Below are positions 12,285 to 23,680 of a stretch of 64,000 bases of DNA, piece after piece; positions within the stretch are counted from its first letter, which is position 1; each line of letters begins with the position of its first letter. This DNA comes from Macrostomum lignano (taxonomy: Eukaryota): assembly GCA_002269645.1 (NCBI GenBank), contig NIVC01000977.1, positions 124,001-188,000 of the forward strand, given 5' to 3'. Under the pieces are notes generated by a model, which searched no databases, was not told the DNA's origin, and saw nothing but the letters and a program-made list of their open reading frames with translations. The position numbers and the translations under genes were made by a program.

Positions 12285-13702
12285 CTACCCACTGCCAGGT
12301 CTCTACTCTCCCCTACCCTACTCTACCGGGTCTCTAATCTCATCTACCCACTGCCAGGTCTCTACTCTCCCCTACCCTACTCTACCGGGTCTCTAATCTC
12401 ACCTACCCACTGCCAGGTCTCTACTCTCCCCTACCCTAATCTACCGGGTCTCTAATCTCATCTACCCACTGCCAGGTCTCTACTCTCCCCTACCCTACTC
12501 TACCGGGTCTCTAATCTCACCTACCCACTGCCAGGTCTCTACTCTCCCTACCCTACTCTACCGGGTCTCTAATCTCACCTACCCACTGCCAAGTCTCTAC
12601 TCTCCCCTACCCTACTCTACCGGGTCTCTAATCTCATCTACCCACTGCCAGGTCTCTACTCTCCCCTACCCTACTCTACCGGGTCTCTAATCTCACCTAC
12701 CCACTGCCAGGTCTCTACTCTCCCCTACCCTACTCTACCGGGTCTCTAATCTCATCTACCCACTGCCAGGTCTCTACTCTCCCCTACCCTACTCTACCGG
12801 GTCTCTAATCTCATCTACCCACTGCCAGGTCTCTACTCTCCCCTACCCTACTCTACCGGGTCTCTAATCTCATCTACCCACTGCCAGGTCTCTACTCTCC
12901 CCTACCCTACTCTACCGGGTCTCTAATCTCATCTACCCACTGCCAGGTCTCTACTCTCCCCTACCCTACTCTACCGGGTCTCTAATCTCATCTACCCACT
13001 GCCAGGTCTCTACTCTCCCCTACCCTACTCTACCGGGTCTCTAATCTCACCTACCCACTGCCAGGTCTATACTCTCCCCTACCCTACTCTACCGGGTCTC
13101 TAATCTCACCTACCCACTGCCAAGTCTCTACTCTCCCCTACCCTACTCTACCGGGTCTCTAATCTCATCTACCCACTGCCAGGTCTCTACTCTCCCCTAC
13201 CCTACTCTACCGGGTCTCTAATCTCACCTACCCACTGCCAGGTCTCTACTCTCCCCTACCCTACTCTACCGGGTCTCTAATCTCACCTACCCACTGCCAG
13301 GTCTCTACTCTCCCCTACCCTACTCTACCGGGTCTCTAATCTCATCTACCCACTGCCAGGTCTCTACTCTCCCCTACCCTACTCTACCGGGTCTCTAATC
13401 TCATCTACCCACTGCCAGGTCTCTACTCTCCCCTACCCTACTCTACCGGGTCTCTAATCTCACCTACCCACTGCCAGGTCTCTACTCTCCCCTACCCTAC
13501 TCTACCGGGTCTCTAATCTCATCTACCCACTGCCAGGTCTCTACTCTCCCCTACCCTACTCTACCGGGTCTCTAATCTCATCTACCCACTGCCAGGTCTC
13601 TACTCTCCCCTACCCTACTCTACCGGGTCTCTAATCTCATCTACCCACTCTACCAGGTATCTACTCTCCCTTACTCTACTCTACCGGTCCTCTAATCTCA
13701 CC
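12285..13702. repeat. 59-bp minisatellite, left part (interrupted by the palindromic insertion)
   Basis: Unit CTACCCACTGCCAGGTCTCTACTCTCCCCTACCCTACTCTACCGGGTCTCTAATCTCA(C/T), about 24 homogeneous copies. Confidence 0.95.
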
Positions 13703-16700
13703 ACTACTATATGAACCCGTATCCGTTGATTTTGGAGGTGGGGTGGGTGTCAACCCTCCTCGCCTCTCATTGGCTGGCGCCCCGATCACTAGGTGATCGA
13801 TACCCGTATCGATATCGGCGCTCGGCGCGCGCGCGCGCCGCAGGCGCCAAGCGCCGCAGGCGACCCTCCCCAGCCGCAGGCGCACCTACCGATATTAGAT
13901 CCCAAATCAATCAGATCCCAAATCAATCAGATCCCAAATCAATCAGATCCCAAGCGCACCCTCCCGAGCCGCAGGCGTCCATGCAGCAGGCGCCCCTCCC
14001 CGCCGCACGCGCCCTCCCCCGACATGTATGCCGCAGGCGCCCTCCCCGTCTCAGGCGCCCCTCCCGATATGTATGCGCACTCTCCCTATATGTACACCGA
14101 TATGTATGCAGCAGGCGCCCCGAGTGTACACTCCCCCGATATGTGTGTACACCGATATGTAGTCATCGATACGGGCCTCTTCCCCTCTCTCACCTACATC
14201 TCAACTAGCGAAATCGAACCCAGGTCGCGCCCATACTAGGACACTACACGGTTGTGGGGTATAGGGAGCGAGAAGTTTCAACCCTAACGCTGACGCAGCC
14301 CTGTACAGTGAGAGTGTACGGGCAGAGAGGGGTGGCGCGGACAGAGAACCAGCCACTAGGTTGTTATACTGTTGAAGCATAGGGAGCGAGAAGTTTTAAC
14401 CCCGATGCTGACGCAGCCCTGTACACTGAGCGTGTACGGGCAGAGGGTGGGTGGAAAGAGATGTGAATAACACAGCCTGCTGCAGGAGCCGGATAGAGAG
14501 GCGCATGCTAGGACAGAGAGGTAGTGTGAGTCACACACACCCCACAGAGAAAGCCATACAGAGGATAGAGAGCTCCCTCCCCAGTTGCAGGGGACAGAGA
14601 GGCAGGCAGGGTATGCAGGGGCATGCGAACCGTCAAGGGGCCACGCGAGGATAGAGTGGAGGAGCAGAGATGTGTTTGGACAGAGAGCCAGCCACGTGTG
14701 CGTAGTGTGAGGGAACAGAAACATATGGAGCAGGAGGGAGATAGGAAGCAAACGCGCAGGGTAAGGGAGCCACACAGGGCGGTACAGTGAGACACGGGCA
14801 GGGGTGGAGCCGTGCGTGGACAGAGCTGAACGGCACGGTCAGCTGCAGGAATAGGATGATAGAGAGGCGCGGAGGGGGACAGAGAGCAGTGTGCAGGGGT
14901 AGGCAGCCACGCAGGCTGGGGAACAGAGAGGCGCGTGTCAGCCAGTTGCAGCCCGGGACAGAGAAGTATGAAGGGGGGCCTGGGACAGAGTTCCGAGCAA
15001 GGCACAGAGGTAGGGTCCTGTAGCTATGTATAGGCAGGGAGCCACGCGAGGGCAGGACAGGGGAGCAGACATGCAAGTTGCATGCAAGGCCAGAGAGGTG
15101 TGCGCGGAGGGAGACAGAGAGCAGTGTGTAGGGGTAGGTAACAGCAAACTTTAGTAGCGGCGCGTGCGGGGACGGAGAAACCAGTCAGAGCATACAGAGA
15201 CGTTACAGAGAGGTACACAAGCAGAGACCAAAGCGAGCAGAGCACATGTGTAGGGACAGAGACGTGAGGGAGAATCGACCAAAACACGCTATGTATTTTC
15301 AAAAGTTGGTTTTAGTGCAACATGTTTAATAGTGGGTAGTATAATAGTATGTACATAGTAGGTATAATAGTAGTAATAATAGTAAGCATATTAGCCCAAA
15401 AGGTAGACTAAAACAGGCTAAACTGTGTGTACGCATCCTCATCACCCCACAAGCCCCCTCTCCCGCCAGACTCACTCTACCAAACCCTCCTGTATTGCTG
15501 CATGAAGGAAAATATAGTGTAAAAATACAGATCTTAACCGTCAGACCGCTGAAATCAGGGCACACTAGAGGGGGTTTCGGGGTCTGCATGCTCTATGTAA
15601 GCTGCTTGAGGAGGTTCCAAGGGCGTTGTGAGGGTTTCCATTATGTTTTGAAAAAAACTAGAGGCTTAAATACAACGTTTTATTCAAAAGTAGGTTATTT
15701 TAATGAAATAGCTGACACAATCATTGTCGAGAGTAGAAATTTTTATAAGAAACCAGGCATTTTAGCAAAAATAAACCTTCAAACCACATAAAATTGAATA
15801 AAAAGCAGACATTTTCAATTATAAACCGCAAGTATTTTAATAGAAAAGTAAGCAAACAAGGCACAAAACCAGCAAATTTTACCTTTTTATTTTAATGTTA
15901 CTGATAAGGTAGAGAGTAGAAACTTGTGAGCTGTACGGAGTTAGAAAGTATTAACCATTATGTATCGTATGAATTATTAGTTCAGTACCAGCCATTGGTC
16001 AAGCGAGCATTTATGAAGTTATTACGAGTGATGAAGGGATAGAGAGCTATATACAGGAAGACAGTATCCTTCTAAACCACCACGAACAGATTGCTAATAG
16101 AGATAAGCTTTGTCTGTGTGCAGTATGAGTAAGCGAAGGCGGGGCAAATACTTTTCCACATGCCGGACAGAACAGTATTGTGCTAGGATTTCTCTCGAAA
16201 TCGCGGTACGTTACTAGTTTTTATCACACCATCCAGATGCGTCAACTAGTCAGCAGTAGTCATTTATATGTTATTAGAACTTACAAACCCAGGTCAAGTA
16301 AATATTACAAAGAGTATATTACGTACACACACCAACTACGAATACCAAGCCATACTAGTCTACTTGCAGTGCTCCTGGAGGGAAGGGACGGCGGGGTGTA
16401 CATCCGGCAGGGTGGGCGTCCAGCGAGTGTACATCTGACAGGATGGGTGTTCAGCAAGTGTACATCTGACAGGGTGGGCGTTCAGCAAGTGTACCTTCAG
16501 CGTCGAGTAGGTGTACACCCGTCAGTGGGAACTCAGCCCCTCCCACCAATGTCGTGTGCATGCGGTTAGTCAGTATAGTGGTGGGGTAGACGGTGCAGGA
16601 AGGAAACCCAGATGCTGACGCTGCCCTGTACAGCGAGCAACCAGCCCTCCTGTAGCAGGAGGGGGACAGAGAGTGCGTGGAGGCAGTAGGAGATAGAGGA

Positions 16701-18264
16701 CGCTACCCGGCATGTCGCAGCACGCGGCGCGGGACAGAGAGGCAGTGTGTAAGTCACCCCCACAGGGAGAGCTGCCCTGGCAGGAGGCGCGGGACAGAGA
16801 GGCGGTGAATCACACCCCACGGAGAGAGCCGTACAGCGAGCTTCCCCACCCGAGTCCGGTAAATATTACAGAGTATTACGTGCACACGCCAGCCCTGAAT
16901 ACCAAGCCATACTAGTCTACCTGCAGTGCTCCCAGAGGGAAGGGATGGTCAGGAGTTACACACCAAGAATGCATTCATACAAAGAGTACACAACTCGAGC
17001 CCAGACACCAAGTCACAGTCTACTTACAGTAGAGATGGTAGATTAATAGCAAGATTATATTACAATTAGACCTCCCTAGCACATGAGGAGTGAAATTCAA
17101 TAATAATTGAATTCAATAATAATACAACATTTAGACGTAGTAATTTAATTACAAAATACCACTAACACTGAGCCAACGAATTGTAGGTTACAAAGGAGTT
17201 GCCACTCATATGGAAAGCCAGTATAATGCAGGTGTATATTATTAAAACATAGACAAAAACGATGCAGACGTATATACACACTATTGATTTTGTACATGTA
17301 CATTTCGGCATATTACCACACATCGCAGGCACATATTATATATCGGGGGATAGGTTAAAATACACACATCGTAGATGTAGAAGCAGACACAATGCAGGAA
17401 AATTATGATACGAGTGTACATATTAGTGCGTAAAAGTATCATATTATGACACCCTGTAGCACATATTGACATAATGCAGGGGAAAATATTGACAGAAATA
17501 GTACACAATTGTAGAGGTAACAACCCGCCAACTAGTAAGGACATCCAGCACTTGTTCAGGTTTTTATTATTTCGAGACGAGTGTCATGCCCCCGCAAGAG
17601 ATCTTATCAGAAATTTGTTGAACTCCACTGCAACTCTCCCCAGAGCCTCCAAATGTGAGTTTTTAACCCAGGGTCGAGTACAAAGGACCCGCCCACTCTT
17701 AACCCCAAGGGGTGATCGTAGCGGAGACCAAGTACAGTGCGGACGGAGAGGGGTAACAGAAAGCGCTGCATCAGACCGCAGGGCTGCATTCCTCCCCCGA
17801 GGTAGGCGCGTCAGCTCCCACTCCTCATTTAACCATCAAGTAAACTAAAGAAGTCAAGCAGAAAGCCTTACAATCACCCGCAACCAGCACAAGTAAGAGT
17901 ACTTTCCACTAGAGAGCCATAGTGCAAGATTCGCGAGCCAAGTTGAAGAAGCACACCAAATTACACTAAAGACATATGTATTAAAAAGCATACCGGCACC
18001 TCTACAAAAACACAGTATGTACCGATTAAAGTTGCTTTTGGTGCAGTGTATTTAATAAAAAGCAGGTACCTAACACAAAAGTAGGCATCAATGCAGTGCA
18101 CGGACTAAACTGTATTTACAAACGCAGGGCAACGAACTACACACAATGTAGCGCATAGACATAATTGTACGCATAAATGTACGCAATTTCCGGTATATAG
18201 GACCACATGTACGCAAATGTACACAATGTACACAAACAAACACACACACACACAAACACAAACA

Positions 18265-18303
<39 letters not shown>

Positions 18304-18390
18304 AGGCGTATCCTGCAGAGCGCATCCTGCAGCGCCGATCGCCGCAGGCGATGGCGCCATCGGCAGGAAGCTCTTGCTGTGAATACGCCT

Positions 18391-18439
<49 letters not shown>

Positions 18440-21400
18440 TGTTTGTGTGTGTGTGTGTTTGTTTGTGTACATTGTGTACATTTGCGTACATGTGGTCCTA
18501 TATACCGGAAATTGCGTACATTTATGCGTACAATTATGTCTATGCGCTACATTGTGTGTAGTTCGTTGCCCTGCGTTTGTAAATACAGTTTAGTCCGTGC
18601 ACTGCATTGATGCCTACTTTTGTGTTAGGTACCTGCTTTTTATTAAATACACTGCACCAAAAGCAACTTTAATCGGTACATACTGTGTTTTTGTAGAGGT
18701 GCCGGTATGCTTTTTAATACATATGTCTTTAGTGTAATTTGGTGTGCTTCTTCAACTTGGCTCGCGAATCTTGCACTATGGCTCTCTAGTGGAAAGTACT
18801 CTTACTTGTGCTGGTTGCGGGTGATTGTAAGGCTTTCTGCTTGACTTCTTTAGTTTACTTGATGGTTAAATGAGGAGTGGGAGCTGACGCGCCTACCTCG
18901 GGGAGGAATGCAGCCCTGCGGTCTGATGCAGCGCTTTCTGTTACCCCTCTCCGTCCGCACTGTACTTGGTCTCCGCTACGATCACCCCTTGGGGTTAAGA
19001 GTGGGCGGGTCCTTTGTACTCGACCCTGGGTTAAAAACTCACATTTGGAGGCTCTGGGGAGAGTTGCAGTGGAGTTCAACAAATTTCTGATAAGATCTCT
19101 TGCGGGGGCATGACACTCGTCTCGAAATAATAAAAACCTGAACAAGTGCTGGATGTCCTTACTAGTTGGCGGGTTGTTACCTCTACAATTGTGTACTATT
19201 TCTGTCAATATTTTCCCCTGCATTATGTCAATATGTGCTACAGGGTGTCATAATATGATACTTTTACGCACTAATATGTACACTCGTATCATAATTTTCC
19301 TGCATTGTGTCTGCTTCTACATCTACGATGTGTGTATTTTAACCTATCCCCCGATATATAATATGTGCCTGCGATGTGTGGTAATATGCCGAAATGTACA
19401 TGTACAAAATCAATAGTGTGTATATACGTCTGCATCGTTTTTGTCTATGTTTTAATAATATACACCTGCATTATACTGGCTTTCCATATGAGTGGCAACT
19501 CCTTTGTAACCTACAATTCGTTGGCTCAGTGTTAGTGGTATTTTGTAATTAAATTACTACGTCTAAATGTTGTATTATTATTGAATTCAATTATTATTGA
19601 ATTTCACTCCTCATGTGCTAGGGAGGTCTAATTGTAATATAATCTTGCTATTAATCTACCATCTCTACTGTAAGTAGACTGTGACTTGGTGTCTGGGCTC
19701 GAGTTGTGTACTCTTTGTATGAATGCATTCTTGGTGTGTAACTCCTGACCATCCCTTCCCTCTGGGAGCACTGCAGGTAGACTAGTATGGCTTGGTATTC
19801 AGGGCTGGCGTGTGCACGTAATACTCTGTAATATTTACCGGACTCGGGTGGGGAAGCTCGCTGTACGGCTCTCTCCGTGGGGTGTGATTCACCGCCTCTC
19901 TGTCCCGCGCCTCCTGCCAGGGCAGCTCTCCCTGTGGGGGTGACTTACACACTGCCTCTCTGTCCCGCGCCGCGTGCTGCGACATGCCGGGTAGCGTCCT
20001 CTATCTCCTACTGCCTCCACGCACTCTCTGTCCCCCTCCTGCTACAGGAGGGCTGGTTGCTCGCTGTACAGGGCAGCGTCAGCATCTGGGTTTCCTTCCT
20101 GCACCGTCTACCCCACCACTATACTGACTAACCGCATGCACACGACATTGGTGGGAGGGGCTGAGTTCCCACTGACGGGTGTACACCTACTCGACGCTGA
20201 AGGTACACTTGCTGAACGCCCACCCTGTCAGATGTACACTTGCTGAACACCCATCCTGTCAGATGTACACTCGCTGGACGCCCACCCTGCCGGATGTACA
20301 CCCCGCCGTCCCTTCCCTCCAGGAGCACTGCAAGTAGACTAGTATGGCTTGGTATTCGTAGTTGGTGTGTGTACGTAATATACTCTTTGTAATATTTACT
20401 TGACCTGGGTTTGTAAGTTCTAATAACATATAAATGACTACTGCTGACTAGTTGACGCATCTGGATGGTGTGATAAAAACTAGTAACGTACCGCGATTTC
20501 GAGAGAAATCCTAGCACAATACTGTTCTGTCCGGCATGTGGAAAAGTATTTGCCCCGCCTTCGCTTACTCATACTGCACACAGACAAAGCTTATCTCTAT
20601 TAGCAATCTGTTCGTGGTGGTTTAGAAGGATACTGTCTTCCTGTATATAGCTCTCTATCCCTTCATCACTCGTAATAACTTCATAAATGCTCGCTTGACC
20701 AATGGCTGGTACTGAACTAATAATTCATACGATACATAATGGTTAATACTTTCTAACTCCGTACAGCTCACAAGTTTCTACTCTCTACCTTATCAGTAAC
20801 ATTAAAATAAAAAGGTAAAATTTGCTGGTTTTGTGCCTTGTTTGCTTACTTTTCTATTAAAATACTTGCGGTTTATAATTGAAAATGTCTGCTTTTTATT
20901 CAATTTTATGTGGTTTGAAGGTTTATTTTTGCTAAAATGCCTGGTTTCTTATAAAAATTTCTACTCTCGACAATGATTGTGTCAGCTATTTCATTAAAAT
21001 AACCTACTTTTGAATAAAACGTTGTATTTAAGCCTCTAGTTTTTTTCAAAACATAATGGAAACCCTCACAACGCCCTTGGAACCTCCTCAAGCAGCTTAC
21101 ATAGAGCATGCAGACCCCGAAACCCCCTCTAGTGTGCCCTGATTTCAGCGGTCTGACGGTTAAGATCTGTATTTTTACACTATATTTTCCTTCATGCAGC
21201 AATACAGGAGGGTTTGGTAGAGTGAGTCTGGCGGGAGAGGGGGCTTGTGGGGTGATGAGGATGCGTACACACAGTTTAGCCTGTTTTAGTCTACCTTTTG
21301 GGCTAATATGCTTACTATTATTACTACTATTATACCTACTATGTACATACTATTATACTACCCACTATTAAACATGTTGCACTAAAACCAACTTTTGAAA

Positions 21401-22993
21401 ATACATAGCGTGTTTTGGTCGATTCTCCCTCACGTCTCTGTCCCTACACATGTGCTCTGCTCGCTTTGGTCTCTGCTTGTGTACCTCTCTGTAACGTCTC
21501 TGTATGCTCTGACTGGTTTCTCCGTCCCCGCACGCGCCGCTACTAAAGTTTGCTGTTACCTACCCCTACACACTGCTCTCTGTCTCCCTCCGCGCACACC
21601 TCTCTGGCCTTGCATGCAACTTGCATGTCTGCTCCCCTGTCCTGCCCTCGCGTGGCTCCCTGCCTATACATAGCTACAGGACCCTACCTCTGTGCCTTGC
21701 TCGGAACTCTGTCCCAGGCCCCCCTTCATACTTCTCTGTCCCGGGCTGCAACTGGCTGACACGCGCCTCTCTGTTCCCCAGCCTGCGTGGCTGCCTACCC
21801 CTGCACACTGCTCTCTGTCCCCCTCCGCGCCTCTCTATCATCCTATTCCTGCAGCTGACCGTGCCGTTCAGCTCTGTCCACGCACGGCTCCACCCCTGCC
21901 CGTGTCTCACTGTACCGCCCTGTGTGGCTCCCTTACCCTGCGCGTTTGCTTCCTATCTCCCTCCTGCTCCATATGTTTCTGTTCCCTCACACTACGCACA
22001 CGTGGCTGGCTCTCTGTCCAAACACATCTCTGCTCCTCCACTCTATCCTCGCGTGGCCCCTTGACGGTTCGCATGCCCCTGCATACCCTGCCTGCCTCTC
22101 TGTCCCCTGCAACTGGGGAGGGAGCTCTCTATCCTCTGTATGGCTTTCTCTGTGGGGTGTGTGTGACTCACACTACCTCTCTGTCCTAGCATGCGCCTCT
22201 CTATCCGGCTCCTGCAGCAGGCTGTGTTATTCACATCTCTTTCCACCCACCCTCTGCCCGTACACGCTCAGTGTACAGGGCTGCGTCAGCATCGGGGTTA
22301 AAACTTCTCGCTCCCTATGCTTCAACAGTATAACAACCTAGTGGCTGGTTCTCTGTCCGCGCCACCCCTCTCTGCCCGTACACTCTCACTGTACAGGGCT
22401 GCGTCAGCGTTAGGGTTGAAACTTCTCGCTCCCTATACCCCACAACCGTGTAGTGTCCTAGTATGGGCGCGACCTGGGTTCGATTTCGCTAGTTGAGATG
22501 TAGGTGAGAGAGGGGAAGAGGCCCGTATCGATGACTACATATCGGTGTACACACATATCGGGGGAGTGTACACTCGGGCGCCTGCTGCATACATATCGGT
22601 GTACATATAGGGAGAGTGCGCATACATATCGGGAGGGGCGCCTGAGACGGGGAGGGCGCCTGCGGCATACATGTCGGGGGAGGGCGCGTGCGGCGGGGAG
22701 GGGCGCCTGCTGCATGGACGCCTGCGGCTCGGGAGGGTGCGCTTGGGATCTGATTGATTTGGGATCTGATTGATTTGGGATCTGATTGATTTGGGATCTG
22801 ATTGATTTATTGGGATCTAATATCGGGAGGGTGCGCCTGCGGCGCTTGGCGCCTGCGGCGCGCGCGCGCGCCGAGCGCCGATATCGATACGGGTATCGAT
22901 CACCTAGTGATCGGGGCGCCAGCCAATGAGAGGCGAGGAGGGTTGACACCCACCCCACCTCCAAAATCAACGGATACGGGTTCATATAGTAGT
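13703..22993. mobile_element. 9.3-kb fully palindromic (fold-back) inserted element with 6-bp TSD; family unknown, Polinton-like ends, apparently non-autonomous
   Basis: Left arm 13703-18311 is the reverse complement of right arm 18383-22993; mirror ORF pairs have coordinates summing to 36697 from 14356 to 17607. Termini ACTACTATATGAACCCG...CGGGTTCATATAGTAGT. Flanked by direct repeat CTCACC (13697-13702 and 22994-22999). The uninterrupted target context is present at about 23101-23150. No ORF over 175 aa and no recognisable domain. Confidence 0.8.
18312..18382. other. Central 71-bp imperfect hairpin/spacer of the giant palindrome
   Basis: Non-mirrored segment CCTGCAGAGCGCATCCTGCAGCGCCGATCGCCGCAGGCGATGGCGCCATCGGCAGGAAGCTCTTGCTGTGA between arm ends ...CTCAGGCGTAT and ATACGCCTGAG..., flanked by (CA)n/(TG)n tracts. 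Confidence 0.85.
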
Positions 22994-23680
22994 CTCACCT
23001 ACTCACTCTACCCGGTTCTATACTCCTCCCTACCCTACTCTACCGGGTCTCTAATCTCATCTACCCACTCTACCAGGTATCTACTCTCCCTTACTCTACT
23101 CTACCGGTCCTCTAATCTCACCTACTCACTCTACCCGGTTCTATACTCTTTCCTACCCTACTCTACCGGGTCTCTAATCTGATCTACCTAATCTATCAGG
23201 TCTCTACTCTCCCCTACCCTACTCTACCGGTCCTCTAATCTCACCTACCCACTCTACCTGGTTCTCTACTCTCCCCTACCCTACTCTACCGGGCCTCTAA
23301 TCTCACATAATCACTCTACCAGGTCTCTACTCTCCCTTACCCTACTCTACCGGGTCTCTAATCTGATCTACCTAATCTATCAGGTCTCTACTCTCCCCTA
23401 CCCTACTCTACCGGGTCTCTAATCTCACCTACCCACTGCCAGGTCTCTACTCTCCCCTACCCTACTGTACCGGGTCTCTAATCTCACCTACCCACTCTAC
23501 CTGGTTCTCTACTCTCCCCTACCCTACTCTACCGGGCCTCTAATCTCACATAATCACTCTACCAGGTCTCTACTCTCCCTTACCCTACTCTACCGGGTCT
23601 CTAATCTGATCTACCTAATCTATCAGGTCTCTACTCTCCCCTATCCTACTCTGCCGGGTCTGTAACCCTCTATCCCACTC
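22994..23680. repeat. 59-bp minisatellite, right part (more diverged variants)
   Basis: Same unit family as 12285-13702 resuming immediately after the TSD. Confidence 0.92.

Follow-up and report, generated by a model that had tools for sequence, protein, structure and literature searches.

A conserved hairpin at the centre of a gene-less palindrome that is likely a snap-back satellite of a split Polinton in Macrostomum lignano

Introduction

The telomeres of parvoviruses and poxviruses are imperfect, bulged hairpins that are resolved and occur in flip and flop orientations. Palindromic by-products of phi29 DNA replication are accounted for by a hairpin-intermediate model, and non-autonomous Polintons with long TIRs were reportedly noted by Kapitonov and Jurka in 2006. 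Polintons (Mavericks) are described as elements of 15–25 kb with TIRs, encoding a protein-primed polymerase (PolB) and an rve integrase (PMC6431247), and the adintoviruses offer a Polinton-related comparison (PMC8502044). For the protein-primed replication of phi29, short palindromic DNAs are reported to arise unless SSB prevents them (PMC2175359), while the snapback genomes of AAV are reported to replicate with helper functions (PMC8235507). The segments of Vesanto virus, found in Drosophila, are described as sharing their termini (PMC8363768), and polymerase-plus-TIR loci without an integrase are described in C. elegans (PMC11414722). A gene-less, whole-element palindromic Polinton appeared in none of the literature titles and abstract openings covered, a scope that does not establish its absence from print.

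Here, we analysed a stretch of 64,000 nucleotides of Macrostomum lignano DNA (the window), in which a sequence-only reading had pointed to a structured palindrome axis resembling viral hairpin telomeres. We propose that this hairpin is the conserved centre of a gene-less palindrome. The palindrome is probably a non-autonomous element of the snap-back type and a satellite of a split Polinton, whose protein-primed polymerase probably copies it and whose integrase likely inserts it.

Results

The axis lies at the centre of a whole-element palindrome

Analysis of the window showed that the axis is the conserved centre of a gene-less palindrome of 9.3 kb that makes up an entire element. The window copy (13703-22993) consists of two arms of approximately 4.6 kb, of which the left arm (13703..18311, forward strand) begins with 5'-ACTACT and contains no conserved ORF, and the right arm (18383..22993, reverse strand) is its reverse complement. 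The element is flanked by a 6-bp target-site duplication (TSD), the left copy of which (13697..13702, forward strand) is identical to the right copy (22994..22999, forward strand). The insertion target is a host minisatellite with a unit of 59–61 bp, which occupies 12285..13700 (forward strand) and resumes at 22993-23665. The window as a whole (1-64000) is rich in unrelated minisatellites, with 96 tandem-repeat rows. Nucleotides 8–27 of the element form a subterminal box that is hypervariable and mosaic (13710..13729, forward strand) and is mirrored at the right end; the variant found in the window is also present on polymerase-type elements. The terminal ~300 bp (13703..13996, forward strand) match the TIR of a polymerase-encoding element of ~9.4 kb at 95.6%, and an internal stretch (16392..16808, forward strand), mirrored in the right arm, matches the TIR of an integrase/capsid-like element of ~10.5 kb at 70–78%.

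A total of 49 axis loci were examined, a few of which represent a single insertion that appears on more than one contig. Both arms were intact at 30 loci, 15 loci were broken (defined as a break less than 800 bp from the axis on at least one side), and four carried an unrelated insert. In 48 of the 49 loci, the axis is flanked by one arm or both; in the remaining one (L227, on C56), the axis abuts terminal sequence of the helper elements described below. Paired ends were identified in 22 of the 37 palindrome loci tried (15 were without), and a 6-bp TSD was present in 20 of these 22 copies, whose lengths range from 7.7 to 9.4 kb. At L173 (C106), one palindrome copy has an interruption in its right arm close to a classic Polinton integrase. 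Long-read chimeras can produce near-perfect palindromes, but the same axis occurs at 50 places with different flanks and with TSDs that match at both ends, it falls into three subfamilies, and it is spanned by independent short-read contigs, which came from two of the four public runs. The TSD pattern refutes an artefact of long-read fold-back or assembly, which is an extremely improbable origin of the palindrome.

Considered as coding DNA, the arms gave no Pfam domain among 10 ORFs, and no coding-region similarity was detected between palindrome and helper loci. The synonymous/non-synonymous counts of five arm ORFs were 21/53, 9/25, 13/27, 15/41, and 6/24, a neutral-like pattern of change that is accompanied by frameshifts in many copies and is unlike that of a helper ORF used as a control (38/26). 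The lack of Pfam matches and the neutral-like substitution counts together speak against the arms as coding DNA. The palindrome is not an autonomous Polinton, with neither PolB nor an rve integrase among the arm ORFs scanned. Identification as a CACTA, Helitron, or Penelope element was dropped on account of the 6-bp TSD and of the ends that the palindrome has in common with PolB- and integrase-encoding elements.

Structure and conservation of the axis

The axis (18301..18393) consists of a perfect 11-bp stem enclosing an asymmetric spacer of 71 nt (18312-18382), with the left closing strand at 18301-18311 pairing with 18383-18393. The spacer lies between a (CA)n tract (18230..18301, forward strand), whose length differs among copies, and a (TG)n tract (18393..18468, forward strand); an unrelated repeat starts in the latter or in its mirror tract at four loci. 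An outer stem is formed by the pairing of GCAGAGC at 18315 with GCTCTTGC at 18370, and of TCCTGC at 18311 and 18325 with GCAGGA at 18363. Inside it are a 6-bp mini-hairpin, ATCGCC-GCA-GGCGAT (18338..18352, forward strand), which forms the apex of the predicted fold with its GCA triloop, and a perfect 14-bp palindrome (18349..18362), which is the junction point in a rearranged copy on C530; in the window axis the two share 4 nt. A cluster of ATGTAC(G/A)CA repeats lies at 18177..18234 (forward strand), with repeats starting at 18177, 18207, 18217, and 18226, and this stretch is the site of the asymmetric flip/flop marker in an 8.8-kb subfamily. The sequence-only reading had picked out all of these motifs, from the outer stem, triloop hairpin, and 14-bp palindrome to the CA/TG tracts and the ATGTAC(G/A)CA cluster, and had located each of them correctly.

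That reading had further described the axis as a branched hairpin with a non-random spacer and had called for its folding as single-stranded DNA. The minimum-energy fold of the window axis is, on both strands, an unbranched, bulged hairpin with a triloop cap, free of T- or Y-shaped side arms, so that the branching was not borne out. Folding of the axis variants gave a side stem of just 2–3 bp in two of them. The predicted stability is modest: the 71-nt spacer by itself had a fold z of -1.46, with 16 of 200 shuffles folding equally well, while for the 73–75-nt core the z of the window type was -2.1 (top strand) and -3.1 (bottom strand), and values of -0.9 to -1.7 were obtained with the remaining two main axis types. 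In stability, the fold is weakly above shuffled sequences.

Comparison with its own genome revealed 42 BLAST matches to the axis at 95–100% identity, and a 25-nt core has 50 exact matches in the assembly. The spacer is therefore conserved between copies, as the earlier reading had asked to be checked, and the axis is neither unrelated from copy to copy nor ordinary unique DNA, all 49 loci examined belonging to one element family. The spacers of different axis types differ by 0–2 substitutions, with 0.2–4.2 expected from the arms; no extra conservation of the core over the arms was detectable in 10 comparisons (P 0.10–0.99), and the idea of an axis conserved beyond its arms was dropped, since none of these comparisons was significant. 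A search of Rfam with the axis returned solely mir-3149, under the gathering score and spanning the CA/TG tracts. By itself, the axis is less special than had been supposed.

Two classes of helper elements form a split Polinton

Genome-wide, 119 matches to the polymerase family PF03175 were found. Several of them sit inside elements of ~9.4–9.7 kb with ACTACT ends, TIRs of ~900 bp, and 6-bp TSDs, and the polymerase element has its first ~300 bp in common with the window palindrome. Its polymerase is encoded in several pieces alongside a PC4-like ORF, and no integrase was found among the six ORFs scanned. In one such element (L098, G000:C493:494485-503962), the polymerase gene pieces are separated by GT-AG intron-like stretches, and the ORF beside the polymerase resembles the PC4-type ORF of classic Polintons. 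Among UniRef homologues of the polymerase, the best 39 of the 50 listed, and one more, are from Macrostomum lignano. Polymerase-type elements also occur in large inverted rearrangements with up to 99.9% identity (L186 on C1090; L180-L185 on C471 and C157).

The second helper class was identified by a terminal pattern search, which gave 63 matches, and 20 stretches were examined. These elements of 10.5 kb have ACTACT ends and 6-bp TSDs. Their coding content comprises an rve integrase, a P-loop ATPase, a Fic protein, and a capsid-like ORF, and comparison with the polymerase element gave no match. The Fic-domain protein (PF02661) is found on L207-L210, L214, and L216-L221. The capsid-like ORF shares 28% identity with a classic Polinton ORF, which we take to be the major capsid; it gave no match in Pfam and none in a PDB sequence search. 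Searching with the integrase gave 55 matches with E below 1e-100. Classic Polintons of 16–17 kb with AGTAGT ends coexist in this genome and could be an alternative source of proteins; a search with their integrase returned close relatives alone among the matches listed. On the basis of their encoded domains and shared ends, the polymerase elements and the integrase/ATPase/capsid-like elements are assigned as two halves of a split Polinton. The termini of the palindrome are common to elements encoding PolB and integrase, as expected of a non-autonomous Polinton derivative.

Relationships among copies and their terminal boxes

The arms were compared over 20 copies after removal of two duplicates that represent a single site; divergence was 0.17% between the arms of one copy and 2.9% from copy to copy. 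Private substitutions were present in both arms in 260 cases, 184 of which come from a single divergent copy, and in one arm in 48 cases. The symmetric changes extend to the stem beside the spacer.

The box at nt 8–27 was represented by 46 haplotypes in 121 termini (nine unclassified), and the bases after it were almost invariant, although the search pattern itself fixed nt 1–7 and the T run behind the box. The haplotype is usually equal at both ends of a copy, and identical haplotypes occur across the palindrome, polymerase, and integrase classes. These termini bear on the alternative that the palindrome is a foldback-type non-autonomous DNA transposon moved by integrase alone, with the axis as an inert remnant and the arms homogenised by chromosomal gene conversion. 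An integrase would suffice for the TSDs and the common ends, simple descent is compatible with the conservation of the axis, and an asymmetric marker near the axis (described below) could have been passed on unrepaired. However, near-identical copies carry different nt 8–27 haplotypes, which are equal at both ends and common to both helper classes, and this sharing across classes suggests that the elements exchange sequence within one replicating pool. Moreover, the triplet repeat ACTACT resembles protein-priming origins of the kind described for jumping-back (PMC2175359), and the helper TIRs are likewise ~100% alike within most copies. We therefore regard movement by integrase alone as unlikely.

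Several loci join sequences of different classes. L222 is a polymerase/palindrome chimera bounded by one TSD, and polymerase- or integrase-type sequence is joined to palindrome arms or axis at L222 (C428), L212 (C843), and L227 (C56). The rearranged copy on C530 (L171) contains half an axis, reversed and with the same private change, followed by a short arm duplication and the full axis. Its reversed half axis stops inside the 14-bp palindrome and runs on into the arm, a layout that fits a template switch at this palindrome in this single case. On C1607 (L147), two axes are arranged in tandem in one orientation.

Orientation of the axis and the viral-telomere interpretation

The earlier reading had inferred that the axis may be the closed end or resolution site of a hairpin replicon, and had proposed that its orientation be compared with flanking polymorphisms. 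On a viral-telomere interpretation, the axis would be a telomere in the style of parvoviruses, poxviruses, or protelomerase systems, and each palindrome would be an unresolved integrated dimer, in which a nuclease cut at the axis yields flip and flop ends. This interpretation agrees with a hairpin that is conserved, imperfect, bulged, and topped by a GCA triloop, with the breaks near the axis seen at 15 of 49 loci, most of them ~100 nt or less from the CA/TG tracts, and with the presence of both axis orientations within the C530 molecule. Long palindromes are unstable in chromosomes, and the breaks could also have resulted from such instability after insertion.

The orientation itself was compared by means of a base that borders the CA tract on its outer side, differs between the arms, and persists as an asymmetric marker in 10 of the 11 loci tested. 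In all 10 carrying loci, representing nine distinct sites, the side of the axis on which this marker is found is constant whatever the direction of insertion, so that one orientation was seen where two had been anticipated; the comparison is blind to a flip that takes the marker along, which would be invisible in a perfect palindrome. Relative to an insert termed X, the axis is inverted in C2693 compared with C1330, C1872, and C5246 (one of four loci). Insert X is a separate repeat with at least 40 matches, and it lies behind a TG tract in 19 of 20 loci, mostly outside the palindrome family; because it follows TG tracts, it is able to enter either tract, which explains these isomers, and they were rejected as evidence of flip/flop. 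The longer copies bearing X were rejected as autonomous elements, their interior being a tandem array of ~664 bp without long ORFs. This TG-following repeat with its ~664-bp array was seen at loci L061-L062 and L187-L206.

Among 14 helper ORFs scanned with Pfam, several of which have no family assignment, there was no Rep/HUH nickase, resolvase, or protelomerase. The open ends of the palindrome are of the integrase type, with a 6-bp TSD, and are common to the protein-primed polymerase element. Together with the unbranched fold and a core conservation not above that of the arms, the single marker orientation and the lack of a Rep or resolvase family among those ORFs make the viral-telomere interpretation improbable. 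What stands of the earlier inference is a conserved axis in a virus-related replicon, which would be the closed end of its single-stranded hairpin form; resolution and flip/flop were not supported, given the single marker orientation and the absence of a resolving nuclease among the partner ORFs scanned.

Discussion

The palindrome, the polymerase elements, and the integrase elements have common ends and 6-bp TSDs, and the arms of the palindrome are near-identical, which supports a satellite of the split Polinton. Its common ends and arm identity point to probable copying by the protein-primed polymerase of the helper, presumably by hairpin replication. Protein-primed, strand-displacing synthesis would begin at either ACTACT end, and the displaced self-complementary strand would snap back into a hairpin of ~4.6 kb, with the axis as its closed end and its open end serving again as an origin. 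Copying round the loop would regenerate the two-ended palindrome, so that neither nicking nor resolution would be needed, and the palindrome could then be inserted by the integrase. Occasional events at the axis, either fold-back or template switching, or else repair in the hairpin, may re-equalise the arms; this does not happen at every cycle, given that 10 of the 11 loci tested retain the asymmetry close to the axis. The axis sequence would most simply be the inherited scar of the founding fold-back event; no match to it was found in the helper elements compared, and over most of its length the 4.6-kb arm matches neither helper.

The similar size of the palindrome and the helper elements hints at packaging. 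A more speculative extension of the satellite model, which we consider possible though rather doubtful, is that a split-Polinton virus includes the palindrome as its third segment, gene-less and matched in size to the polymerase and integrase/capsid segments so as to be packaged. It would turn at a dedicated triloop hairpin and trade the hypervariable 20-nt terminal box with the other two segments, the box serving as a code for origin or packaging. Gene content has been the main basis for deductions about Polinton replication, and a multi-copy palindrome that shares the ends of a split Polinton may serve as a natural record of end use and arm equalisation. The satellite model predicts a specific, detectable molecule, namely a snap-back hairpin of 4.6 kb with a protein-linked open end, and the common hypervariable terminal box and the size match with the helpers may provide testable rules for origin recognition and packaging.

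Comparison with snap-back defective genomes shows that the palindrome, like them, duplicates one end in inverted form and has an origin at each terminus, and that it is probably helper-dependent. As in the palindromic by-products described for phi29, one end is inverted and duplicated, two origins are present, and no genes are needed; unlike those by-products as described, the palindrome is chromosomally integrated, ~9 kb long, and a heritable family with a fixed axis. The snapback defective genomes of AAV are similarly reported as self-complementary, helper-dependent subgenomes with symmetric and asymmetric forms (PMC8235507). AAV, however, relies on Rep nicking at hairpin ITRs, whereas the palindrome has open ends of protein-primed appearance, no Rep among the ORFs scanned, and an axis that is fixed and not varied.

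With parvovirus and poxvirus telomeres, the palindrome has in common an imperfect, bulged hairpin at the centre of a structure resembling a head-to-head dimer. It differs from them in that no flip/flop was seen, the best fold has no side arms, no resolving enzyme was found in the ORFs scanned, and the integrated unit is the palindrome itself. The bidnaviruses and Vesanto virus likewise have segments of similar size with common terminal repeats, some of them described as possibly optional or satellite (PMC8363768, PMC8502044); unlike the palindrome, integration and a gene-less palindromic segment are absent from the portions of those accounts that describe them. In comparison to Polintons/Mavericks, the palindrome is gene-less, its inverted repeat is the entire element, its ends are ACTACT, whereas the classic Polintons of this genome end in AGTAGT, and the helper functions are carried on two separate elements of ~9.4 and ~10.5 kb. 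It resembles them in its terminal inverted repeats, in its 6-bp TSD and 3-nt-repeat ends, and in the Polinton-type genes of its helpers.
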